Positions 1,330 to 11,616 of a stretch of 11,616 nucleotides of DNA are shown piece by piece. Source of the stretch: a virus. Where the stretch lies: the UHGV virus genome UHGV-0128598; one strand, written 5' to 3'. Position 1 is the stretch's first letter, and every line of letters starts with the position of its first letter. Both the position numbers and the translations under genes were made by a program. Below the pieces are notes generated by a model. It worked only from the letters and a program-made list of their open reading frames with translations, was not told the DNA's origin and made no database searches.

Positions 1330-1561
1330 CTTTATACCACGCCTGCCAGCGATACTTATCCTGCCGCAGCTGGCGCAGACATTCAGCAGTTTCTATATCA
1401 GCCTGCAGATCTTCATCGCTGTCTGTTCCAGCTTTGCTCGCTCCCTTGCACGGCTCCTGCATCAAATCCGCTGATGGAGTTGGCCGCATCGAGGGCGCGC
1501 TGACGCAACTGCACAGCGTGATCGTCAAAATCGCACTTAGTATGATTCGGGTCGTTAACAT
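1316..1561 (-). CDS. Rz1-like outer-membrane spanin (o-spanin), overlapped with Rz
   Basis: 81-aa ORF in a different frame from Rz, starting inside Rz (ATG at 1561, GGTGA 5 nt upstream) and running past the Rz stop. N-terminus MLTTRIILSAILTITLCSCVSAPS looks like a lipoprotein signal with Cys at 17 and 19, though the lipobox is not canonical. Position directly after the endolysin and Rz. Its last 14 nt overlap the 3' end of int. Confidence 0.5.
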   Translation of the reverse strand: MLTTRIILSAILTITLCSCVSAPSMRPTPSADLMQEPCKGASKAGTDSDEDLQADIETAECLRQLRQDKYRWQAWYKATSF

Positions 1562-1796
1562 ATTTCACCACATCGCGATAAATGGTCCGGTAAATCACTT
1601 TGCCTTCTGCGCTGGACGCTGCCGCTTTCTGTTCGCCGGTTGCTACAGCCTTCTCAGCCTTTTTACTCTTCTCCTGATATTCGCTGTTTATCTTGTCACT
1701 GTGCGCGTACCAGCCTTTCAAGTAACCCGCGTAATACGCACCGACGAGCAACGCCAGCAGAACGGCCAGCGCTAACAATTTTGTTTTAAGGGTCAC
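1413..1796 (-). CDS. Rz-like inner-membrane spanin (i-spanin)
   Basis: The ORF track gives 1413-1814 (GTG start). A GTG at 1796 overlaps the endolysin stop as GTGA with GGGGGA 7 nt upstream, giving [25 protein letters not shown]..., a basic N-terminus followed by one transmembrane segment and a charged, helix-like periplasmic region. This is the typical Rz layout and position. Start codon is uncertain between 1796 and 1814. Confidence 0.65.
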   Translation of the reverse strand: MTLKTKLLALAVLLALLVGAYYAGYLKGWYAHSDKINSEYQEKSKKAEKAVATGEQKAAASSAEGKVIYRTIYRDVVKYVNDPNHTKCDFDDHAVQLRQRALDAANSISGFDAGAVQGSEQSWNRQR

Positions 1797-2323
1797 TGGT
1801 CTATCCCCCAGCACGTCAGCGCGCTTTCCTGGTCACGACGGGATACCTGCCCGTAGCAGTTATTGGAACGGATCCGGCAATCGCGTCCACCGTCTTTTAT
1901 CCACCACCTGATTGCTTCACATGCCCCCTTCCGATCGCCGGCATTGATTCGCTTATAGAACGTGGATGGGAAACACTTGCCGGGGCCGATATTGTACGGG
2001 CAGAACGACGCAATACCTGCTTTCTGCGGTTCAGTCAGCGGCACTTTGATATTGTGCTCTACCCAGGCTAGCGCTTTATCGCGTTCGATAGCGTTTACCT
2101 GGTCACATTTTGCCTGCGTCAGCTTCATACCCTTCACTACAGGCTTACCATCAACCATCGTGGCACCACGGCAAATCGTCCAAATTCCTCCAGCGTCACG
2201 GTATGCGGAGAGACTGTTGCCCTCTTTCTCATTCAGGAACTGATCGAGAATAACCGATGCTGGCGCACCGGCGAGTACCAGTCCCAGAACAGCAGCGCTA
2301 AGCTTAGTCCTGTTGCTGGTCAT
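1793..2323 (-). CDS. SAR endolysin (T4-type lysozyme fold, phage 21 R-like)
   Basis: 176 aa with ATG start and AGAGG ribosome-binding site. N-terminal Gly/Ala-rich weakly hydrophobic segment [19 protein letters not shown] (signal-anchor-release type) followed by the catalytic triad spacing E-x8-D-x5-T in [16 protein letters not shown]. Start overlaps the holin 3' end by 20 nt; stop overlaps the Rz start. Confidence 0.85.
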
Positions 2324-2540
2324 AGAGTTGAGCCTCTTTGCGACGGTCTTCTTTGATTTTGAAATAGAGATTGGTCAGGTAGGTAACCAGCCCCAGAAAT
2401 ATACTCGCCAGCACACCGATAGCAGCCCACTGGCTTGGGCTGACTTTATCGAGTAATTGCAGTAACCAGAAGACGCCACTGCCCCCGGACGTAATATAGG
2501 AAGCACCTGCCGCCAGACCTGAATGGTTGTTCATCCTCAT
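2304..2540 (-). CDS. Pinholin, phage 21 S-like class II holin with dual-start motif
   Basis: 78 aa with two predicted transmembrane segments and a charged C-terminus ([11 protein letters not shown]). Strong resemblance, from memory, to phage 21 S pinholin ([12 protein letters not shown]...[16 protein letters not shown]). Starts M-R-M (ATG AGG ATG), the Met-basic-Met arrangement used for holin/antiholin dual starts. Directly upstream of a SAR endolysin. Confidence 0.8.
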
Positions 2541-2587
2541 ACCTTACCCCCCGTAGGGAACACTATTAAGTGCTCCGAGGGTAAGGT
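2541..2587 (-). promoter_or_regulatory. Hairpin enclosing the holin ribosome-binding site (perfect 9-bp inverted repeat, 29-nt loop)
   Basis: Plus-strand ACCTTACCC at 2541-2549 is the exact reverse complement of GGGTAAGGT at 2579-2587. On the sense (minus) strand the 3' arm GGGUAAGGU sits immediately 5' of the holin AUG and contains the Shine-Dalgarno-like G-rich element. Confidence 0.4.
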
Positions 2588-2595
2588 GGTGATGT

Positions 2596-2610
2596 GGTCG
2601 GAATCCTGAC
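2596..2610. repeat. Copy A (degenerate) of the 16-bp inverted-repeat motif GGTCGGAATCCCGACC
   Basis: GGTCGGAATCCTGAC read directly; differs from copies B and C by one substitution, with the final base absent (next base is T). Lies in the acyltransferase-holin intergenic region, 55 nt upstream of the holin ATG. Confidence 0.6.
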
Positions 2611-2651
2611 TATTGGAGGTATTGACCCGAGAGCCAACATAATGAATTCAT

Positions 2652-3755
2652 TTAGGGTGTATTTAACCCTTTAATTTTTTTATGGCTTAGCAAGCCGAAC
2701 AGGCCCCATATTTTATTAAAGGCGCGTGTTACTTTTTTATCCAGAAGCTTTATGTACAGCGCTGCAATAGTAAACGATATTAACATCGAAATAACTATCG
2801 TCACCTCATAGTTAACAAAAGTCTTCGTAACCGGATATTCAACCCACCACTTCCTTTCAAACATAGCGTGAGACCAAAATCCGATATCGGCATGTATTAA
2901 ATACAGTGGGTATGTCATCGCCCCAAGAAACTTAACAACATTATAAAACTTACCGACTTCAGATACGTTAGATGCACACCAGGTTAACGTAACAAGAGAG
3001 ATACATGCGAGCAGAAGAGATGCATCAGAAACTGAATACCCAAAACTTCCATTTACATATGAATTAAAACCCAACATTCTATTATATATGAGGATCACAC
3101 TAAGAACCATCAAGACGAAATCAAAAGGAGATGGCTTATTTTTCATTATGTCATATATTACTATCCCTGCAATGAAATGACCGGCATGTTCAGTTATAAA
3201 TAGCGCATCAACAAAGCTAGAATGGATTAAAAATTGATTGCTGTATGAAATCACCAACCATGCAAAGCAAATCTCCCTTCTGTAACCACTCCAAATGTTA
3301 AATAACATCATAATGAAAACCAATATATAAAATGTCACCTCTTTCTGAATTGTCCAATAGATATCGCTAAAAAAATGATATCCGAACACTTGGGGGAAAA
3401 ACGTAAAGCTATAGAATAAAGAAACAATCCTTTCCTTAAAATCAACCATTGGTATAAAGCACTGAAACACTAAAACTATAAATCCAAATATTATAAAGGT
3501 GGGTACTATCCTATTAATCCTTGACTTAATAAATTCAACAGGTGTTCTTCCAACTGATGAAAGTGATATTACAAATCCACTTATAATGAAAAATAAATCA
3601 ACACCAAAGTCCCCAAAATAGAAGGCATTAACTGTTAACTCTTTCGGTAGGAAGCCTGAGATAGGCCCAGCGAACAAGTAGTGGTACAACATCACCATCA
3701 TAAATGCCATAAAGCGAAGACCGTCGAGCGCTTCAATCCTTACTGTGGTTTTCAT
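2652..3755 (-). CDS. Integral-membrane acyltransferase, Acyl_transf_3 (OafA/Oac) family; probable O-antigen O-acetyltransferase
   Basis: The track starts at TTG 3758; ATG at 3755 is the likely start (AGAGGA upstream), about 367 aa. Highly hydrophobic with many predicted transmembrane segments and the family motifs: R-x10-H (LDGLRFMAFMMVMLYH), FFxISG (VDLFFIISGFVIS) and RI.P (RINRIVPTF). Markedly AT-rich compared with its neighbours. Confidence 0.85.
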   Translation of the reverse strand: MKTTVRIEALDGLRFMAFMMVMLYHYLFAGPISGFLPKELTVNAFYFGDFGVDLFFIISGFVISLSSVGRTPVEFIKSRINRIVPTFIIFGFIVLVFQCFIPMVDFKERIVSLFYSFTFFPQVFGYHFFSDIYWTIQKEVTFYILVFIMMLFNIWSGYRREICFAWLVISYSNQFLIHSSFVDALFITEHAGHFIAGIVIYDIMKNKPSPFDFVLMVLSVILIYNRMLGFNSYVNGSFGYSVSDASLLLACISLVTLTWCASNVSEVGKFYNVVKFLGAMTYPLYLIHADIGFWSHAMFERKWWVEYPVTKTFVNYEVTIVISMLISFTIAALYIKLLDKKVTRAFNKIWGLFGLLSHKKIKGLNTP

Positions 3756-3760
3756 CAAAT

Positions 3761-3803
3761 CCTCTGGAGTATGCTTTTTACTAAGGAAATCATACCCCAG
3801 AGG
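3761..3803 (-). promoter_or_regulatory. 13-bp inverted repeat (17-nt loop) between tailspike and acyltransferase, enclosing the acyltransferase ribosome-binding site
   Basis: Plus-strand cctctggagtatg (3761-3773) and cataccccagagg (3791-3803) are reverse complements with one mismatch. On the minus-strand RNA that mismatch is a G-U wobble, so all 13 bp pair; on the plus-strand RNA it would be a C-A mismatch. The 3' arm contains the AGAGG element 5 nt before the start. Confidence 0.4.
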
Positions 3804-3819
3804 CTTTACTAATCAAAGT

Positions 3820-6321
3820 TTATCTTGTCAATCGCGCGACGATACCCGCCATGACAAAAACGATTATCTGGTCGTAGTTTAATCCGTATGTGTCGGCCTC
3901 TACATCATGCTCAATCATTTTATACTTTCTGTAATCAAGCCCGTGTCTAGCCATTACCTTCATGACATGCTGTACGGTATACCCAATGTTAACCCCCGCC
4001 TGCTCGCCAAAGTCTCGGCAATCCTTGAGCCACCGGAAAGTACCTGCGCCTAATGCAAGCTCCTGGGATGCTGCAATCTCGGCATCAGTAAATGGTTCAA
4101 TCTCAGTTTTCTGGCGTGCATCAGAGGTAGTAACCACGCCACCTGCTGAATATACACTAGCCCATCTCCTTGAAGAGTTTCCAAGTGTGTAAGTATTGTC
4201 AATATGGGGACCACATGCCCCATTAACATCAAGAGGAAATATTGGATTATCAGTGTTAACCCCAACATTACCACCGCGTGGGTTAATAACTACCTGGTAG
4301 TTATTACCTGATGAATCACTACCCTGAATAAAACCGCCATTAGAACCAGAGTTGCTTAAACATCCAAACTGTAACTCTCTACCACCATCATTATATGAAG
4401 ATCTAAATATTGCTGATGTTTTCAACGTTGAATCTGACAGCGGAATATTTGTTTTATTATCTACAGAAAATAATGCCCTTGGTGTTCCTCCCGTATTCAT
4501 TACCCCAACAAGCCCGCCTGGTGTTATCTCCATAACTTTATGTGGCTTATAGGCCCCATCATCACCATTGTAGAACCGTATGGGGTAATAGTATCCGTTG
4601 CCAGCTATACCGGCTCTAATCTCGTATTCACCAGTCGCTTTTGCAGATATACTGAGATTTTCTTCATCAGCCCCCGTAGTCTTCTGCACGCGGATCGTAC
4701 TTATCTGCGCCCCAATATCGTCACGAATTTTATATGTTGCGCCTGTAGCATTTATAGACGTGTCCTGTAAATTACAGGTGTTGCCGTTATTTGAAATACT
4801 GACAACAGTGCGTAGCGTACCGTTCAGCCAGAATTTATAGGCTCCACTACCGTAACCGAAGAAAAAAAACGGGTCCCCTGACGTTCTGGTGCAAACACCG
4901 TTAATCACGTCACAAATGCCACCACCAGTGGTGTACACATAATGGAATTTTGAGTGCGTACCCACTGCCGCAGTAAGATCCCCGCCGCCTATTTCTGTTA
5001 CGGAAATCTGCCCTGTTGAGGTTAATGCAGTAATTACCAGCGCCCGTTCAAATGCGTATATAGCATCGCCTACTGACCACTTATCTAAGTCGAATAAAGA
5101 GCCACCCTCTCTGACCAGAATATTTTGTGATTGGTGGACTAGTTGACCTTGTGCAGCAGAGCCGTATACAACCACTTCTGAAGGATTGTAATTTTTACTA
5201 GTCTGAATACGCATCCAATTTGCATGACCATCAGATGATAAAAACATACCGTCACCTGAATCCATTAAAGCCCCACCACCGACCTTGAATCCCCCTGAGT
5301 TAGTAGTGGTACCTGCCGAAACAACGCCAGCCCCAAATTTGGTCTCATCTCGTTTACGATACTGGACATTAAGGAATGCCGAGAACGATACTGCTGGTGA
5401 TAAGATTGCCTCGGAGTCCACAACCAGTGTTGGGAGTTTCGCCCACACTAAAGCTATTGGTGTATTGCAAACATAATTCCCCTGCGGAACGTGCAAAGTG
5501 GTACACCCGGAAGGTAGGTTGGATATCATAGAAGCCCAAGCCGCGCTCTCGTCCGAACCATCCCCCCTGACCCCGAAATCTTTTACGCTCAGTGTGTCGG
5601 CGTTTTTATCATGCTGTGTACGCCCCACAGATCCAGAATATGGCTGTTTTACCCCGATAAGAGCATCGCCCTTGCCGCTATCGGTGCTCGCGAGATCTAC
5701 CAAAACATCAGCAGCGCTACCACTCTCTGGACGAACAAATATCGGAGCACCCTCAGCATTGTAAGCCTGTAATCTGTTTGCACGCTGCTCAGCTGGTGCA
5801 AGCGGTGCCACGTAGTTTTCAGGCACGCGCAATGCCCTGTTAAGATTGGTCTGCCCGACCTCCTGCACGTATTTTTTGGTTGCTGCGTCCTGGTCATTAA
5901 CCGGATCCGCAAGGCCGGATATGCGATACCCTTCTGCGTTAAACGGTCCTCCAAGCAACGGGCGACGTAACGCCAGTCCGAGATAAATAAAAGAACGCTG
6001 GATAGCCATCCAGAGGCGGTCAAAATCTTTATTGACGGTATCTGCCAGCAGATCGCCATTGTCCTGGTAATCAGTCAGGCGATAGGTAGGAACAACACGT
6101 TCCAGCATAACAACCGTGCCGTTAGCAGGTGGGGTTAAAAACGTAAGATCACCACCGCTAACGTTACCCACTCCCGACACAGTAAATCCAGTAGTAACAG
6201 GCGTACCATTAAGACTCACCTGAATATCGCTGGCGCTGATGATGTAGAACTCAAAGGGAAAAACGGTCGTCAGACCGTTGGCGTTATAAATAATATAGGG
6301 GGTCTGATTCGGTACCGACAT
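3820..6321 (-). CDS. Tailspike/tail fibre: T7 gp17-like N-terminal anchor, pectate-lyase-like beta-helix depolymerase, C-terminal peptidase S74 intramolecular chaperone
   Basis: 833 aa, ATG start. The N-terminal 150 aa or so resemble, as recalled, the T7 tail-fibre N-terminal domain (VFPFEFY, ERVVPTYRLTDY, ISGLADPVNDQDAATKKYV). The mid region carries the pectate-lyase-3 start signature SVKDFGVRGDGSDESAAWASMISNL. The C-terminus has the autoproteolytic chaperone motif ...SSRRWASVYSAGGVVTTSDARQKTEIEPF. Confidence 0.9.
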   Translation of the reverse strand: MSVPNQTPYIIYNANGLTTVFPFEFYIISASDIQVSLNGTPVTTGFTVSGVGNVSGGDLTFLTPPANGTVVMLERVVPTYRLTDYQDNGDLLADTVNKDFDRLWMAIQRSFIYLGLALRRPLLGGPFNAEGYRISGLADPVNDQDAATKKYVQEVGQTNLNRALRVPENYVAPLAPAEQRANRLQAYNAEGAPIFVRPESGSAADVLVDLASTDSGKGDALIGVKQPYSGSVGRTQHDKNADTLSVKDFGVRGDGSDESAAWASMISNLPSGCTTLHVPQGNYVCNTPIALVWAKLPTLVVDSEAILSPAVSFSAFLNVQYRKRDETKFGAGVVSAGTTTNSGGFKVGGGALMDSGDGMFLSSDGHANWMRIQTSKNYNPSEVVVYGSAAQGQLVHQSQNILVREGGSLFDLDKWSVGDAIYAFERALVITALTSTGQISVTEIGGGDLTAAVGTHSKFHYVYTTGGGICDVINGVCTRTSGDPFFFFGYGSGAYKFWLNGTLRTVVSISNNGNTCNLQDTSINATGATYKIRDDIGAQISTIRVQKTTGADEENLSISAKATGEYEIRAGIAGNGYYYPIRFYNGDDGAYKPHKVMEITPGGLVGVMNTGGTPRALFSVDNKTNIPLSDSTLKTSAIFRSSYNDGGRELQFGCLSNSGSNGGFIQGSDSSGNNYQVVINPRGGNVGVNTDNPIFPLDVNGACGPHIDNTYTLGNSSRRWASVYSAGGVVTTSDARQKTEIEPFTDAEIAASQELALGAGTFRWLKDCRDFGEQAGVNIGYTVQHVMKVMARHGLDYRKYKMIEHDVEADTYGLNYDQIIVFVMAGIVARLTR

Positions 6322-6342
6322 GGCGTGTAACCTCTGGCAGGG

Positions 6343-7953
6343 TTAATAATCGACTTCGACCTCATGGTCTCCGTCACTTAACTGCCAATGTTCCCGCGAT
6401 TGTCCGGTCGGAATCCCGACCACTTTGCCGATACGAACCGGCGTTGCACTAATAGCACCCGCACCAGAATCAATGAAATCGTCCGGCTGGTTGGTCAGTG
6501 CCGGGTTAAAGTCCCGCATCTGGTCGTACATCGGGCCATCAAGCACGTCAGTGTGCGCCCACAGGAAACGGGAAGACAAAGGAGCTTCGAACGCATCAAG
6601 GATACGCTTCTGCTTGTTTGTCACGCTGAATTCTTCCCGCACGCCGCACCCGGTACCTTTTAACGCCTGCCGCAGCAGTTTTCCCGCAAAGCCGCCGGGG
6701 CCGTTTACCTCGACACAAACAACGGGGATCTGGTATCGGATAACCAGCTCTTTAATCTGGGCGACCTGCCCGCCAGTAATCTTGTCGTTATCGTCAAACT
6801 CTGCCAGTTCACCAGTCAGCTCCTTGCAAACATGCCAGTACAGATGTCCGCGCGCGTCAGTCAGTATCAGGGATAACGCTGAGGCGTCCGCTTTCACTTT
6901 ACCGGTTGCCACGTCCCACCACGCCACAGCACCAACAATTTGCGTGCTGCCGAGCCACATCGAGGCGGTACGGTTGGCGTAGCGAATTTCAGGATGGATG
7001 TTGTACTCACGGATGCGATCAGGATCGAGACGAACGTCGCCAACGGGTTTACTGTGCAGCTGGTACTGGCTGTCCCACTCGTTAACGGTGCGACATTCTT
7101 TACGGCGCAACTCCAGCTCGTCATGATCGAATCGCTCAGGCCAGGCACATCCGGCGTAGAAATCAATAACCGTCTCTGGCGCCGCAGCAAACTCCACGCC
7201 GTCGGCGGTCAGCTTGTAGTCAACATCCTCGACCAGCAGTCGCGCCGCTTTATGGATGCCCGCGAAAACGTACTCCGGCCGGAACGGAATAACGTAGCGC
7301 AGCTGCGTGGCATCCTTCGCCTCGATGCGCTTTTCTTTCTCAAACAGTTTAATGGTCAGACAGTCAGCACCTGCCGATTCCATTTCATCGTAGAGGCTGT
7401 CATGTGTGTGCGGTGTACCGATAAAGAGCTTTCGCCCGCCGGGGATCAGGATGTGAGTTTGCTCGCTCAGGCGGTATCGCAGTTTCTCACGCGCTTCCGG
7501 CGTCTGGATGTTGCCGGGGACTTCCACGTCGTCGTTCTGGCACTCATTTGCACGCGCGCCGGTAACGTTCGACAGGATACCTTTTGCGAACATGCTCGCG
7601 TTACGCATATCCAGCGAACCGTTAACCCACCACTGCTCGACTGTGCCGAGTCCATCCGGCAACATGCCTTTTGTCAGGGGGTGATTGCGTAAAACGTTCT
7701 GCGTATCGCGGCTGGTTTTGCGCGCTGTGGAATCTGATTCAGACTGGTGCAGGACCCGGTACTGGCGGTCGCAGTAATATCGCCATGCGTTATAAACGCC
7801 CAGTATGGTAGATTTACCGAAACCACGAAAACAGCGAAGCACCGCAAGATTTCCGCGATGCTCCAGCCAGTGACAGGCACGATAGTGGCAGTCCGGAACG
7901 TCCCAGTTCATCCGCTCCGCCCACATTAAAAAGAAGGCGAGGAACGAAATCAT
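6343..7953 (-). CDS. Terminase large subunit, T7 gp19-like (DNA maturase B)
   Basis: 536 aa, ATG start. Walker A in RGFGKSTILG, plus DDVEVP...AREKL and FIGTPHTHDSLYDE, which resemble T7 gp19 as recalled (AFRGIGKS, ADDVEIP...AREKL, YLGTPQT..LY). Start overlaps the upstream gene stop as ATGA. Confidence 0.85.
   Translation of the reverse strand: MISFLAFFLMWAERMNWDVPDCHYRACHWLEHRGNLAVLRCFRGFGKSTILGVYNAWRYYCDRQYRVLHQSESDSTARKTSRDTQNVLRNHPLTKGMLPDGLGTVEQWWVNGSLDMRNASMFAKGILSNVTGARANECQNDDVEVPGNIQTPEAREKLRYRLSEQTHILIPGGRKLFIGTPHTHDSLYDEMESAGADCLTIKLFEKEKRIEAKDATQLRYVIPFRPEYVFAGIHKAARLLVEDVDYKLTADGVEFAAAPETVIDFYAGCAWPERFDHDELELRRKECRTVNEWDSQYQLHSKPVGDVRLDPDRIREYNIHPEIRYANRTASMWLGSTQIVGAVAWWDVATGKVKADASALSLILTDARGHLYWHVCKELTGELAEFDDNDKITGGQVAQIKELVIRYQIPVVCVEVNGPGGFAGKLLRQALKGTGCGVREEFSVTNKQKRILDAFEAPLSSRFLWAHTDVLDGPMYDQMRDFNPALTNQPDDFIDSGAGAISATPVRIGKVVGIPTGQSREHWQLSDGDHEVEVDY
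6406..6421. repeat. Copy B of the 16-bp inverted-repeat motif GGTCGGAATCCCGACC (6-bp arms, 4-nt spacer)
   Basis: Exact 16-mer shared with copy C. Lies inside the last 26 codons or so of the terminase gene (encoding ...VGIPTG...), 84 nt upstream of the tailspike ATG. Confidence 0.65.
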
Positions 7954-8291
7954 TTTTTGCCTTTCTGCAGGCGCTCGATAATGGCGAGGGCTTCACGCTC
8001 CGCCTTCGATACCTGCTGCCCCAGCGCAAAGGCTTCATCATCCTGCCCGGGGTTATCTGAAGGCGTACCACCGCGCGTTTGCATGCCAATAAGGGAATGC
8101 ACCTTAATCAGCAGCGTCAGCGAAGCCGCCGCGTTCTTCTTGTCCCAGTATCGATCGCCGCGCTCGTCTTTGGTCAGTTCGCTGGGTTTCTTCCCCGCCC
8201 CCGGCCAGTTGTCCGGATCGGCTTCTTCGAGCACCACGTCAGTGAGTTTATCGCTCAGCGCGGTAAGGCGTGTCTTGTAATCCTGATGCAT
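7950..8291 (-). CDS. Putative terminase small subunit (called by position only)
   Basis: The track extends to a TTG at 8375, but that would read through a terminator-like hairpin and the 3' end of the upstream gene. The first ATG is at 8291 (MHQDYKTRLTALSDK..., 113 aa). Acidic/charged small protein whose stop overlaps the large terminase start (ATGA). No sequence motif recognised. Confidence 0.45.
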   Translation of the reverse strand: MHQDYKTRLTALSDKLTDVVLEEADPDNWPGAGKKPSELTKDERGDRYWDKKNAAASLTLLIKVHSLIGMQTRGGTPSDNPGQDDEAFALGQQVSKAEREALAIIERLQKGKK

Positions 8292-8319
8292 AAAAAAGCC
8301 CTGTAGTGAATACAGGGCT
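8292..8319 (-). terminator. Intrinsic-terminator-like hairpin (9-bp stem, 5-nt loop) followed by T6 on the minus strand
   Basis: Minus strand reads AGCCCTGTA-TTCAC-TACAGGGCT-TTTTT and then the ATG at 8291. Lies between the gp16-like gene stop (8356) and the small terminase start. It leaves no room for a Shine-Dalgarno element, so it may instead be a leader or processing structure. Confidence 0.5.
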
Positions 8320-8337
8320 ATGGTGTATGCTTTTTGA

Positions 8338-8353
8338 GGTCGGAATCCCGACC
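8338..8353. repeat. Copy C of the 16-bp inverted-repeat motif GGTCGGAATCCCGACC
   Basis: Exact 16-mer, starting 2 nt after the stop of the gp16-like gene on the minus strand, 46 nt upstream of the small terminase ATG and just upstream of the terminator-like hairpin. Confidence 0.65.
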
Positions 8354-8355
8354 GA

Positions 8356-9870
8356 TTACCGCATGCCGGGGTCAACCTGATTTATCAGCGGCGCTATCCA
8401 GAAAAGATTATTACCCGGCAGCAGCGTACGCACGTTATGCAGTACCCGATCGCCAGCATCACCGTTGAGCACTCCGGCGGTCACATCGGTGACGGTATCC
8501 AGCAAGCCAAACGTCGGGCCGAGAGCGGAGCCAATAAAGCCACGGCTGGCATAGCGAGACTGTGTGCCGGTACCGAGCAGTGCACCCAGCCCCACCATAC
8601 CGCCGGAGGCTTTTTCTGCCATGTTGTTATATTCCATCAGCGGGCCGAGAATACCGGACCGGTCGATACCTTCAATGGCCAGTTTCTGAGGCGACCAGTC
8701 AACCTCTTTACCATTTGCGGATTGTTTAAGTGCGTACGTCAGTGCGCCGAGGCTAATCTGGAAAGCGGTACCGTAATAAAACTGTCCGGTTCCCTCCTGC
8801 AGGCCGCCCAGCGTTGCGCGGTTGTAGGACGCGGTAGCGAACGATTTAAACTGGAAGATAGTTTTACCCAGTGGCGTGCTGGCCCACAATGGCGTATCGC
8901 CGATCCCCGGTGTGATAACTGTATTGTTAACGTCTTTGAGCACGGCCGACTGAAAAACGCCAGCCACATGCTGATCGTCCCATTTTTCAAAATTGCCGAT
9001 ATGCCAGCCATTGATTACCTCACCGTGTTTTTCGAATTCGCTGCGAATACGCGCGGCCATATTGTCGTTAATGCCGAGCTTGGCAAGGCGGCGGCCCGCA
9101 AACGCGCCGGACAGAATGCCGTCGGAGGTGATCATGCCGTTTACCGATTTGTTCATATCGTCGAAGTGGCCCATCAGCGTGAGCTTGCCGAACGCATCGG
9201 TGACGCGCTCCATTCCCGCCTCTACCGCTGTAGTGCGGGAGGAGCTGTCTACCAGGTCACCCATCGTACGCGCACGGGTATGCAGGATGGTTTCCAGCCC
9301 GACGGCCATTTTTAACTGTTCGGCCCGGCTGGCCTTGAATGCCGGCGACCGGGTTATCAGCGCAGAGTAACCGCGCATGGTATTGCCAAACCCGTTAACC
9401 ATCACACCGCGGGCGAGATCAGGAATAGCGGAAACGGTCATACCGCCCAGCTTGGTGACAAAGTTGGCGCTACGCAGAAACGCACCGGCGCGAACGAAAA
9501 ATGATGATGGGTCATCCGGCATACCGTAGGTACCGACGAGGCGATCGCGAAGCGCCAGAATATCGCGCAGATCGGCTTCGCGCGCCTTCGCCAGCTTTTC
9601 CTGCTCTGCCGGGCGTAACCGCATCAGCGCGTCGTATTCGTCCTGGATGGCAGCGAGCTGCGAATCCAGCGACTTGTTGCCAAAGGTACGGGTTAATTCA
9701 ATTTCCGCTGAGGCTTCGCGGATATGACGCTGCAGGACGTAGTTTGCATCGCTCTCCAGATAATCTTTCATCAGGCGATCGGGAACGCTCAACGTACGCG
9801 ATTTGGTGCTGCCCGGCGATTTCAGCATCTTCGCGGGACATGGTTTTCTCACCGCGTGACCACCAGTCAA
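8356..9870 (-). CDS. Internal virion (ejection) protein, T7 gp16-like, C-terminal portion; apparently separated from the N-terminal portion by a frameshift
   Basis: 504-aa ORF. Gly/Ala-rich hydrophobic stretches and a FQFKSF motif resembling the C-terminal part of T7 gp16 as recalled. The first 30 codons or so look non-protein-like and overlap the upstream ORF, so the true N-terminal boundary is probably the frame junction near 9795-9802. Confidence 0.6.
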   Translation of the reverse strand: MTGGHAVRKPCPAKMLKSPGSTKSRTLSVPDRLMKDYLESDANYVLQRHIREASAEIELTRTFGNKSLDSQLAAIQDEYDALMRLRPAEQEKLAKAREADLRDILALRDRLVGTYGMPDDPSSFFVRAGAFLRSANFVTKLGGMTVSAIPDLARGVMVNGFGNTMRGYSALITRSPAFKASRAEQLKMAVGLETILHTRARTMGDLVDSSSRTTAVEAGMERVTDAFGKLTLMGHFDDMNKSVNGMITSDGILSGAFAGRRLAKLGINDNMAARIRSEFEKHGEVINGWHIGNFEKWDDQHVAGVFQSAVLKDVNNTVITPGIGDTPLWASTPLGKTIFQFKSFATASYNRATLGGLQEGTGQFYYGTAFQISLGALTYALKQSANGKEVDWSPQKLAIEGIDRSGILGPLMEYNNMAEKASGGMVGLGALLGTGTQSRYASRGFIGSALGPTFGLLDTVTDVTAGVLNGDAGDRVLHNVRTLLPGNNLFWIAPLINQVDPGMR

Positions 9871-11182
9871 CCAGCATATTGCGGAATTTATCTCGCTCGC
9901 TAACGATTTTACCCACCTTGTACACGCGCGGAAAATAGCTGGTCTGTCCCATCGCTTTCAGTTCGGCATCCGGCGGGAGTAAGCCCAGTTCCTGCTGGGC
10001 TGTCTTCACGCGGTTAATGACCGTACGCATTGCCTGCGCAGCTTCCTGCACTTTTGCATTAACGTGCACGTCGCCGTTACGCAGCGCCTCGCCAACCTGT
10101 TCACGGAAGGCCGTATAACCCAGATCGCCGCCTTCGGCTTTATACTGGGTGTATGCCTGCTTATTCGCAGTAACGACGGCCGCCTCTTCGCGGTGCCAGC
10201 CACGTACGCGCGTCTCGGCTGCTACCGGTGTTTCGATACCGCGCAGGTTGCCTTCCAGCGTGAAGTTATTCTCCGCCAACTCCAGCGCTGTCCGGCGCGC
10301 TTCTTTTGATGGGGATTCCATCAGGCGGGTGATCGGCGTCAGATAGCTACCGGCCTTTTTAGCCAGCTTGCCGAGCGGGCCGCCAGACACCGGTGTGAGG
10401 TCTTCCAGCGTTGCTTCGCGAATACGCATGGCGCCGACGCTGCCACCGTTCGGTAAAGTATCCGCCAGGGCGTCAGCTGCGTTGTTAATCGTTGGCGCGG
10501 CATTCATGTTATCGAGCGCCTCCGCCACTTCCCGTGTAGCCGCGTTTCTTACCGATGGGGTGATCATCGCGCCAGCAGTAGCAAATACACCGCTGAGAAG
10601 CGCGCCGGCTGTAATGTGCGCGGCGCTCTCCCTTGCTGTTCTGGTGTACTGCTCGTTATTGAGCGCAACCTCGCTAAGTGCGGTACCGGCGGCGCCAATA
10701 GCAATCTGAGAACCAATACGAGCAGCCAGGCTTCCCTGCGCACCGGGAATAAACATCGATGCGACCGTGACAGGGTCGATAACCCCGGCGGCGATACTGG
10801 CCAGAGTTCCTTCAGCGCCTGCCTCAGACAAAACCCGACGGTCTTCATTTTCATCGTCTATCTGGTTTTTTATCCAGGCGGTTTCCTCTGGCGATCGAGA
10901 ATCCGCAAAGGCGGATCCCCATTGTTCGTACCCCTTTAGTTCGTTTTTATCAGAATAAGGGTTATACCCGTCCGCCGGTTCGAATTGTTTGGCCGAGCGG
11001 AACATTCCAGCCAGCAGGTTATTCTGACGAAATGCAGCGCCCCACACAGACGGCTCATCCTGCTGAGGTGCTGGGTTAGTACCTTCAGGCAAAGGCACAT
11101 CAAATCCGGTAGGTGCAGCCAGGACATTACCCGCCGGAGTGAATCCGTTATTGAGTTCTTCAGGGGTGGCGTATACCGGCAT
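9698..11182 (-). CDS. Internal virion (ejection) protein, T7 gp16-like, N-terminal/central portion
   Basis: 494-aa ORF, ATG start overlapping the upstream stop (TAATG). Motifs resemble T7 gp16 as recalled: TPEEL, SEAGAEGTLASIAAGVIDPVTVASMFIPG (compare AGIIGAGVDPLSYVPMVG) and EKTMSREDAEI (compare AKMSREETRY). The last 30 codons or so are low-complexity and overlap the next ORF in another frame. No N-terminal transglycosylase-like region is evident. Confidence 0.6.
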   Translation of the reverse strand: MPVYATPEELNNGFTPAGNVLAAPTGFDVPLPEGTNPAPQQDEPSVWGAAFRQNNLLAGMFRSAKQFEPADGYNPYSDKNELKGYEQWGSAFADSRSPEETAWIKNQIDDENEDRRVLSEAGAEGTLASIAAGVIDPVTVASMFIPGAQGSLAARIGSQIAIGAAGTALSEVALNNEQYTRTARESAAHITAGALLSGVFATAGAMITPSVRNAATREVAEALDNMNAAPTINNAADALADTLPNGGSVGAMRIREATLEDLTPVSGGPLGKLAKKAGSYLTPITRLMESPSKEARRTALELAENNFTLEGNLRGIETPVAAETRVRGWHREEAAVVTANKQAYTQYKAEGGDLGYTAFREQVGEALRNGDVHVNAKVQEAAQAMRTVINRVKTAQQELGLLPPDAELKAMGQTSYFPRVYKVGKIVSERDKFRNMLVDWWSRGEKTMSREDAEIAGQHQIAYVERSRSPDERLSGERCKLRPAASYPRSLSGN

Positions 11183-11577
11183 TATTCAGTGCTCCACGAA
11201 AAGTAATTTTTAACCCTGTCCATGCGCTCGTTATGCAGGCGCTTGTACTGCTCATCGAGCGCACGGTGCTTATCTTTGAACCCACGAATATCCTGCCCGC
11301 GTTGCAGCTCATTGCGATCATGTTCTTCGCGCTCTTCCTGCATTTTTTTGTATGGCGCCCACTCTTCCAGTGACGGTTTCCAGCGCATCGGCCTGCCGTA
11401 CGAATCGTAGAACGGTTGTACCGCCTCGATACCATCCTTATCTTTTGTTCGCACCATGATGGCGTAATCGCCATTGCGGGCCGTCAGTACATCAGGGGTA
11501 ATTTCCAGATCGCCGCCAATACGCGACTCCGGCGTTTTGCTGGTGACAGGCGCTGCGTTACCGGGTGATGCTGCCAA
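11182..11577 (-). CDS. Hypothetical protein, translationally coupled to the gp16-like gene
   Basis: The track ORF starts at a TTG (11577) with no ribosome-binding site. The first ATG is at 11457 (MVRTKDKDG..., about 91 aa). Charged, helix-like C-terminus. Stop overlaps the next start (TAATG). A different frame is open from the window edge to a stop at 11484-11486, so an upstream gene may be cut by the window. Start and reality of this ORF are uncertain. Confidence 0.35.
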   Translation of the reverse strand: MAASPGNAAPVTSKTPESRIGGDLEITPDVLTARNGDYAIMVRTKDKDGIEAVQPFYDSYGRPMRWKPSLEEWAPYKKMQEEREEHDRNELQRGQDIRGFKDKHRALDEQYKRLHNERMDRVKNYFSWSTE

Positions 11578-11616
11578 CTTACTGATTTAGTGTATGATGG
11601 TGTTTTTGAGGTGCTC

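Follow-up and report, generated by a model that had tools for sequence, protein, structure and literature searches.

A palindrome heading late gene blocks in temperate podophages: candidate activator-dependent late promoters

Phage P1 carries 11 late promoters with a common 9-bp inverted repeat, which is the Lpa-binding site (PMC10695390). Here we describe an analogous arrangement around a 16-bp palindrome, GGTCGGAATCCCGACC, in UHGV virus genome UHGV-0128598, a stretch of 11,616 nucleotides that was analyzed as a whole and is called the window below. On the minus strand, which carries all of the neighboring genes, the motif reads GGTCGGGATTCCGACC, and one variant copy (copy A) reads AGTCAGGATTCCGACC. 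The window corresponds to the late-gene end of a defective prophage of ~34 kb adjoining dusA in Escherichia coli, and is 99.9-100% identical to the dusA-adjacent prophage of E. coli STEC383 and B379; the intact STEC383 element, about 34 kb, is referred to as L001. Comparison across related phages suggests that the palindrome is probably the upstream recognition element of a phage late-promoter set, with the 91-residue gene product HTH91 (WP_001619027.1 in STEC383) as its candidate activator.

The likeness to P1 lies in the layout. In both cases many late promoters are spread over the genome, each with an inverted repeat in place of a -35 element followed by a -10 hexamer, and just as lpa lies directly upstream of the late promoter for the packaging genes (in the order lpa, LPpac, pacA), the HTH91 gene lies before the first late promoter. 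The components differ, however. HTH91 has no sequence similarity to Lpa (BLASTP E = 1.9) and has 91 residues where Lpa has 150; the element sequences are unrelated; and the P1 element is 9 bp long, is annotated as the "-22 region" and stands 4 bp from the hexamer, whereas the one described here is 16 bp long and stands 12 bp away. The late-promoter set is analogous to, and not homologous with, the Lpa promoters of P1, which are its closest functional analogue rather than a family to which it belongs.

Small controller (C) proteins of restriction-modification systems are a further point of comparison. In the AhdI system, a controller-protein site at -29 represses and a site at -44 activates (PMC2275141). 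The HTH91 model resembles the C proteins in its small XRE-type helix-turn-helix fold, but sequence identity is 14-15% and Pfam helix-turn-helix models remain below threshold. Moreover, L001 has no restriction-modification genes, each promoter has one palindrome rather than a double operator, and the sites are found downstream of the regulator gene and at four distant places, with none upstream of the regulator for autoregulation.

The palindrome also invites comparison with other elements that replace or precede a promoter core. At the T4 MotA box, the PhoB pho box and lambda cII sites, a box lies ~10-13 bp upstream of a sigma-70 -10 element, a -35 element is missing, and its recognition is replaced or remodeled by the activator. 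These boxes are asymmetric or direct repeats bound by unrelated folds, whereas the box described here is palindromic, its candidate binder is of XRE type, and no AsiA-like co-factor is evident. In the T7 map, conserved promoters precede the capsid and tail-fiber genes, sometimes inside the end of the preceding gene. The virion gene set of the T7 group is similar to that found here, but L001 has no single-subunit RNA polymerase gene, and the sites combine a palindrome, a variable spacer and a sigma-70-like -10 hexamer where T7 has a continuous, asymmetric promoter of ~23 bp.

Architecture of the palindromic sites

A sequence-only reading of the window had reported two exact copies of the 16-mer and one near copy. 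We confirmed both exact matches on the plus strand (6406-6421 and 8338-8353); the near copy, also on the plus strand, occupies 2596-2611 rather than 2596-2610, and differs by one mismatch when the 15-mer is compared and by two over the full 16 positions. The repetition had been considered too improbable for chance, and this was borne out by five matches at ≤3 mismatches against 0.05 expected, a count that none of 200 shuffled sequences reached. The distances given to the downstream start codons are likewise correct, at 55 nt for the holin gene (ATG at 2540), 84 nt for the tail fiber gene (6321) and 46 nt for the gene upstream of terL (8291), as is the placement of copy B inside the 3' end of terL (6343-7953). 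The copies and the features beside them are as follows.

8338-8353, minus strand: copy C, GGTCGGGATTCCGACC, an exact match 2 nt past the stop codon of an internal-virion-protein gene; interpreted as the upstream element, at about -40 to -25, of the promoter that serves the terS-like gene and terL
8320-8325, minus strand: -10-like hexamer CACCAT of copy C, 12 nt downstream, with a predicted start near 8313
8292-8319, minus strand: terminator-like hairpin from a terminator scan, AGCCCTGTA-TTCAC-TACAGGGCT followed by TTTTT, with a 9-bp stem
6406-6421, minus strand: copy B, an exact match in the terL 3' end, where it encodes V-G-I-P-T; read as the upstream element of the tail-fiber promoter
6388-6393, minus strand: -10-like hexamer GAACAT of copy B, 12 nt downstream, with a predicted start near 6381
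2596-2611, minus strand: copy A, the variant AGTCAGGATTCCGACC, with two changes that both fall in the upstream half-site; read as the upstream element of the lysis-cassette promoter
2578-2583, minus strand: -10-like hexamer TACCCT of copy A, 12 nt downstream, with a predicted start near 2571

When all unique contexts were aligned on the motif, a second conserved element, nAnnnT, was observed at positions 13-18 after it. The A (+14) and T (+18) of this hexamer are both present in 169 of 187 unique contexts, while any other offset gives at most 30, and the spacer between motif and hexamer is fixed at 12 nt in length though variable in sequence. Hexamers include AACAAT, CACACT, GACAAT, CATCAT, GAACAT and TACCCT. 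They are class-specific in part: terS sites have CATCAT, CATTAT or CACCAT, tail-fiber sites have GAAGAT, GAACAT or GAGCAT, and TACCCT is found in 19 of 24 holin contexts. An A and a T at these places are the two bases that dominate sigma-70 recognition of the -10 element. If the hexamer is a -10 element, the palindrome would span about -40 to -25, with its center at about -32.5.

No conventional -35 element accompanies the hexamer. At the -35 position, the unique motif contexts have GGATTC, which matches TTGACA at 0 of 6 bases, and no TG extension of the -10 was seen in the aligned contexts. Two consensus scans called none of the motif sites as a canonical -35/-10 promoter and gave canonical matches no more often than in shuffled sequence; on the late strand, those inside the late-gene block are confined to the acyltransferase accessory gene and the sequence just before it. 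Since an A/T-rich flank (ATTT) precedes the palindrome and G/C tends to come after it, the element is directional despite its symmetry. The sites share with P1 Lpa-type late promoters both a repeat element upstream of a -10 hexamer without a -35 element and the presence of several co-oriented copies per genome that head late blocks.

Conservation in related phages

In L001 the motif occurs five times, always on the strand of the late genes. The copies precede the first late gene, the capsid gene, the gene upstream of terL, the tail fiber gene (this copy being inside the end of terL) and the holin gene. The first two of these lie outside the window. L002, another prophage of E. coli, combines the same late genes with an unrelated lambdoid early and immunity region and has the motif at the same five places, and a prophage remnant in strain EC2 keeps three copies, those of the genes still present. 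An exact-match scan of viral contigs, in which the sample is chosen by the motif, returned at least 120 stretches, mostly in contigs of about 35 kb; among the matches listed, the same five site classes recur, with 201 sites co-oriented with the late genes and 7 opposite.

Two samples were also built by protein homology, to the capsid and to TerL, independently of the motif, and sites in them were scored as profile hits. A site is present ≤400 nt upstream of the capsid gene in 77 of 77 capsid-selected loci, where all 202 profile hits in 1.46 Mb are co-oriented and none is opposite. In TerL-selected loci, the motif is found in all 67 unique terL 3' ends, before the terS-like gene in 76 of 78 and before the holin gene in 47 of 49, and 212 of 212 profile hits are co-oriented. 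Together, the two samples give 414 co-oriented hits out of 414, with the motif at these places in 96-100% of loci, and more than 500 viral contigs encode the terminase. It had been proposed to search related prophages and phage genomes for consistent placement of the motif; this search was run, and across hundreds of contigs the motif consistently precedes the tail-fiber, terminase and lysis genes. Searches of the accessible literature for the 16-mer and its reverse complement found neither.

Conservation is not uniform between site classes. A perfect consensus is found in 92% of capsid, 46% of terS and 58% of holin contexts, and terS and holin sites often have a degenerate upstream half-site; the variant seen in copy A recurs at the holin site of L002, and accounts for 7 of 24 unique holin-site contexts. 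The contrast between near-perfect capsid sites and degenerate terS and holin sites suggests a possible grading of promoter strength or timing. At the first late promoter (L001 23796-23811 and its equivalents), a fully symmetric variant, GGTCGGGATCCCGACC, occurs in 17 of 66 contexts and is rare in the other four classes; its center is a Dam methylation site (GATC).

Within terL, the motif overlaps coding sequence, and the idea that it is kept despite coding constraints was supported by synonymous sites. Third-codon entropy was computed over the last 150 codons of terL in the TerL-selected loci (67 unique sequences). It is 0.18 bits inside the motif, where synonymous sites are frozen, compared with 0.98 bits at the 137 other third positions, of which 3.6% are invariant. 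The final T of the tail-fiber hexamer is also a synonymous third-codon position, and is unchanged in 67 of 67 sequences. These comparisons support selection on the motif at the nucleotide level inside coding sequence. The terL copy of the E. coli phage (window 6406-6421) and a second in-coding copy, at the C-terminus of the regulator of a G+C-rich relative (359-378 of its locus, L131), share the same reading frame (V-G-I-P-T).

Terminators and leader structures accompany several sites. In L001, terminators follow the scaffold gene, just before the capsid promoter, and the capsid gene. A terminator lies directly upstream of the capsid motif copy in most relatives, so a new promoter would be needed at that point. 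The hairpin at 8292-8319 starts right after the -10 hexamer CACCAT and ends at the ATG at 8291, leaving no separate Shine-Dalgarno spacer, and compensatory changes of its stem in relatives (AGCCTC..GAGGCT versus AGCCCC..GGGGCT) show it to be real. As the predicted start lies inside the 5' arm, only transcripts reading through from upstream could form this hairpin, and it could stop upstream transcripts while promoter-initiated ones escape.

Two other leaders were noted. At the holin site (window 2542-2586, minus strand), the -10 region CCTTACCCT shows complementarity to the ribosome-binding site GGGTAAGG that directly precedes the holin ATG. This pairing is kept in 19 of 19 relatives, with one-sided G-U changes only and no double compensatory change, and because the predicted holin start falls past the 5' arm, masking of the ribosome-binding site would be possible only in read-through transcripts. 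The capsid promoter is followed by a leader of ~125 nt (L001 20200-20320) with a conserved G+C-rich stem (CCGGCG..CGCCGG) a few bases past the predicted start, which might be a 5' stabilizing hairpin.

The candidate regulator and the weighing of explanations

The gene for HTH91 closes the early region and directly precedes the first motif copy; a candidate sigma-70-like promoter of its own lies at L001 24371-24344. Between L001 and L002 the protein is 60% identical, in contrast to the otherwise unrelated early regions. Pfam gave only weak, sub-threshold helix-turn-helix matches for HTH91 and NCBIfam gave none, and a profile search recovered 842 cluster representatives, nearly all of 70-120 residues. 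The predicted structure is confident (pLDDT 86.9) and has an XRE/Cro-type fold, with restriction-modification controller proteins and the P22 c2 repressor, both dimeric DNA binders, as the closest matches to the model.

An HTH91 homologue is encoded in 65 of 65 capsid-selected loci with enough upstream sequence, and the site comes right after the gene in 63 of them, while three relatives with a capsid identity of 41-53% have neither the motif nor a close homologue. Homologues from phages of 63-67% G+C keep GGTCGGGAAACCGACC followed by 12 nt and GATACT, and a 48%-identical homologue on a short metagenome contig is accompanied by essentially the same site and spacing. In a lineage whose HTH91 homologue is 35% identical and differs in its recognition helix, GGGCTGGAAACCGCCC stands at an unchanged distance from GACCAT. 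In the loci of 48-59%-identical homologues that do not have the motif, k-mer counting found no replacement motif; these homologues are probably related proteins in other phage types. Only three of 50,697 GenBank phage records, the Yersinia phages YeP4-6, carry the HTH91 regulator, and only 2 of 5,426 complete E. coli genomes contain the full regulator region.

Two narrower proposals for the reader of the motif were rejected. A coupling between recognition helix and half-site (SKSA with GACC; SKST or AKAT with GAAC) fails because G+C-rich AKST homologues use GACC. The immunity repressors are not the readers either, because the immunity genes of L001 and L002 are unrelated while the motif is identical.

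These observations are brought together most readily if the palindrome belongs to activator-dependent late promoters. In each promoter, a short A/T-rich flank would be followed by the palindrome, a spacer of 12 bp that varies in sequence and a weak -10 hexamer of sigma-70 type (nAnnnT), with the palindrome taking the place of the absent -35 element. In the intact prophage, five such promoters would head transcription units at the first late gene, the capsid gene, the terS-like gene and terL, the tail fiber gene and the holin gene, three of them within the window. HTH91 would be expressed either from the end of the early operon or by its own candidate sigma-70-like promoter, a dimer would bind both half-sites and recruit host RNA polymerase, presumably in its sigma-70 form, and transcription would start about 7 nt past the hexamer, with terminators dividing the late region. 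Of the three roles that had been put forward from the window (a phage promoter or operator for a late regulator, an RNA-processing hairpin, a module-boundary recombination site), the promoter or operator is strongly supported by the hexamer 12 nt away, the absence of a -35 element, the strict orientation and the conserved places, whereas the other two are not supported. The accompanying view that sequence cannot distinguish these roles is correct for one window, but comparison with relatives does separate them.

Several points nevertheless count against this explanation. The case is comparative throughout. The HTH91 gene lies outside the window, its link to the site is drawn from synteny and co-occurrence, and the tentative match between helix residues and bases failed. 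PHROGs places the protein in family 16553, which has the automatic name "transcriptional repressor", and a dimer site centered near -32 is often a repressor position. The hexamers are weak, with no enrichment for T at the first position, and symmetric changes in the palindrome alone cannot separate a dimer-binding site from a hairpin. Finally, the prophage copy is damaged, so the sites of the window itself may be out of use.

The repressor position and the family name lead to the explanation in which the motif is an operator, where a helix-turn-helix protein or another phage protein sits on the -35 region and keeps the late promoters off until it is removed. A center near -32.5 does overlap the -35 region, in the classic position for repression, and C.AhdI represses from -29 (PMC2275141). 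However, there would be nothing to repress, with TTGACA matched at 0 of 6 bases, no extended -10 and weak hexamers; repression is ranked low because no -35 element is available to occlude. The motif is also kept in prophages with unrelated immunity repressors, and the regulator gene ends the early operon directly before the first late promoter, as P1 late activators do, so that we regard an operator as improbable. Direct reading of motif and hexamer by an unrecognized phage polymerase, sigma factor or sigma-remodeling factor would suit the T7-like virion module and the several late-region proteins that have no Pfam match, and a 16-bp element in place of the -35 recalls the T4 MotA box. In the T7 map, phage-polymerase promoters precede the capsid and tail-fiber genes, like these sites. 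Yet no phage RNA polymerase is annotated in the 34-kb L001 prophage, Pfam searches of its large or unassigned proteins found no polymerase or sigma domain, a palindrome points to a symmetric dimer more readily than to a sigma domain, and the hexamer has the invariant A and T that characterize -10 recognition of the sigma-70 type. Such a direct reader appears slightly less probable again than an operator.

The explanations that do not involve a promoter fare worse. As RNA, the motif could form a hairpin (GGUCGG-GAUU-CCGACC) in late transcripts that acts in processing, stabilization or antitermination; the consensus folds at -9.5 kcal/mol, the motif lies at junctions between gene blocks, and the distant lineage with GGGCTGGAAACCGCCC changes both arms symmetrically, which would preserve pairing. 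Covariation over 20 distinct variants is nevertheless no better than in shuffles (394 of 500 score at least as high), and positions 5/12 are G/C in 203, A/C in 55, G/T in 18 and A/T in 2 of 278 contexts, where 4.1 A/T would be expected if they were independent. The frequent variant AGUCAGGAUUCCGACC, which many phages keep at their holin and terS sites, has a folding energy of -2.1 kcal/mol, and neither it nor the copy A variant does better than shuffled sequence. A hairpin also leaves the hexamer at a fixed 12 nt unexplained, transcripts from upstream would rarely contain the motif at the capsid site, where a terminator lies just upstream, and Rfam gave no match for the motif at a permissive threshold; we consider this role very unlikely. 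A primary role as a recombination signal marking the boundaries of exchangeable modules draws on the 19-25% of sequence pairs at capsid and terS sites that are ≥70% identical downstream and unrelated upstream, and on the differences between relatives in the genes beside the sites (tail fiber, acyltransferase). These breaks are one-sided, however, and never fall just downstream of the motif, which places it in the downstream cassette rather than at the crossover point; there is no break at the terL-internal copy, where mean identity is 0.74 and 0.79 on the two sides, no recombinase is linked to the motif, and the fixed -10 hexamer and strict orientation go unexplained. The module-boundary description is descriptively right but secondary, since the motif stays coupled to the genes that follow it, as expected of a promoter, and recombination as the primary function is even less likely than a hairpin. 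The least probable explanation, to the point of being barely credible, is a host REP-type repetitive element inside the prophage. The motif is a short G+C-rich palindrome, which speaks for it, but scattering of the 16-mer in host DNA, which had been named as a refuting observation, was not seen in 64 kb of flanking E. coli DNA, where there is no match at ≤3 mismatches. Among the matches listed in viral contigs, almost all are at five fixed positions of one phage family (201 co-oriented, 7 opposite), and the motif is kept in phages of 63-67% G+C hosts. A pac site, replication iterons and a terminator were rejected because none of them fits five dispersed, co-oriented copies with a downstream hexamer and no T-run.

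Prophage content and significance of the late-promoter set

The window carries late genes of the prophage on the minus strand, with an integrase gene on the plus strand. The genes, assigned largely by PHROG searches, are listed below.

7950-8291, minus strand: terS-like gene (putative small terminase), a RefSeq coding sequence in the identical STEC383 prophage; first gene served by copy C
6343-7953, minus strand: terL, the large terminase gene
3820-6321, minus strand: tail fiber or tailspike gene (PHROG tail-protein families; "phage tail fiber protein" in RefSeq); first gene served by copy B
2304-2540, minus strand: holin gene (PHROG holin family), first gene of the lysis cassette served by copy A
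1793-2323, minus strand: lysozyme gene (PHROG endolysin family), in the lysis cassette after holin
1413-1814, minus strand: Rz-like spanin gene (PHROG spanin family), in the lysis cassette after holin
Minus strand, PHROG searches: internal virion proteins, the small gene beside terL, large terminase and tail fiber
Minus strand, PHROG searches: O-acetyltransferase, holin, endolysin and Rz-like spanin
Plus strand: integrase gene

The protein encoded upstream of terL matches PHROG 9277, where no function is assigned, and its small-terminase label is putative, being taken from its position beside terL. In L001, the product of the first late gene (23328-23747) has 139 residues, belongs to PHROG 17476 of unknown function and begins MGRPKKP; it may be the actual small terminase or a different DNA-binding protein. 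The O-acetyltransferase gene (open reading frame 2652-3758) lies between the tail fiber gene and the holin promoter with no palindrome in front. It has its own sigma-70-like consensus match at window 3789-3816 on the minus strand (TTGATT, 16 nt, TATGAT), which would fit an accessory O-acetyltransferase expressed from the resident prophage. In strain EC2, the equivalent gene sits on the opposite strand.

The copy of the prophage in the window is defective, because it has both a deletion and an insertion-element end. Relative to STEC383, ~77 bp are absent inside the internal-virion-protein gene (9814-9828), which splits it into open reading frames 8356-9870 and 9698-11182, and an IS1 end begins at 11565 (11565-11616) within the next virion gene. 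The virion module of L001 is T7-like, with portal, scaffold, capsid, tail tube and internal proteins, and its early region codes for a LexA-like repressor, a VapE primase-helicase and a family A DNA polymerase. By capsid similarity, the closest named relatives are the Yersinia phages YeP4-6 (85%), and Acinetobacter TPWB-05, Alcaligenes Piluca and the Pelagibacter HTVC010P group are more remote.

A bolder interpretation may also be considered. HTH91 would be a new and widespread class of phage transcription factor (842 representatives, no curated family) whose dimer near -32.5 replaces -35 recognition; a T7-like module would be run from five promoters without a phage RNA polymerase; and, with the holin and terS starts placed inside the 5' arms of hairpins, masking of the ribosome-binding site or termination would be avoided only by transcripts initiated at these promoters. 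If this were true, one 91-residue protein would do what T4 needs MotA plus AsiA for. We think this combination possible but rather doubtful. The system is best explained, on comparative grounds, as a further example of familiar phage regulation, namely the late promoters of an unstudied temperate phage family.

The family of the candidate activator has no assigned function, and, should the proposed mechanism be confirmed, HTH91 and its site could be used as a compact, orthogonal switch for expression. Late transcription units can be marked in prophages of this kind with the 38-bp profile. For the phages themselves, the sites would mean that a T7-like virion gene set is run by host polymerase, with promoters where T7 uses its own polymerase. 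Five late promoters, a consensus and a candidate master activator together offer a concrete and testable map of regulation in a temperate podophage family that is large but has hardly been studied.

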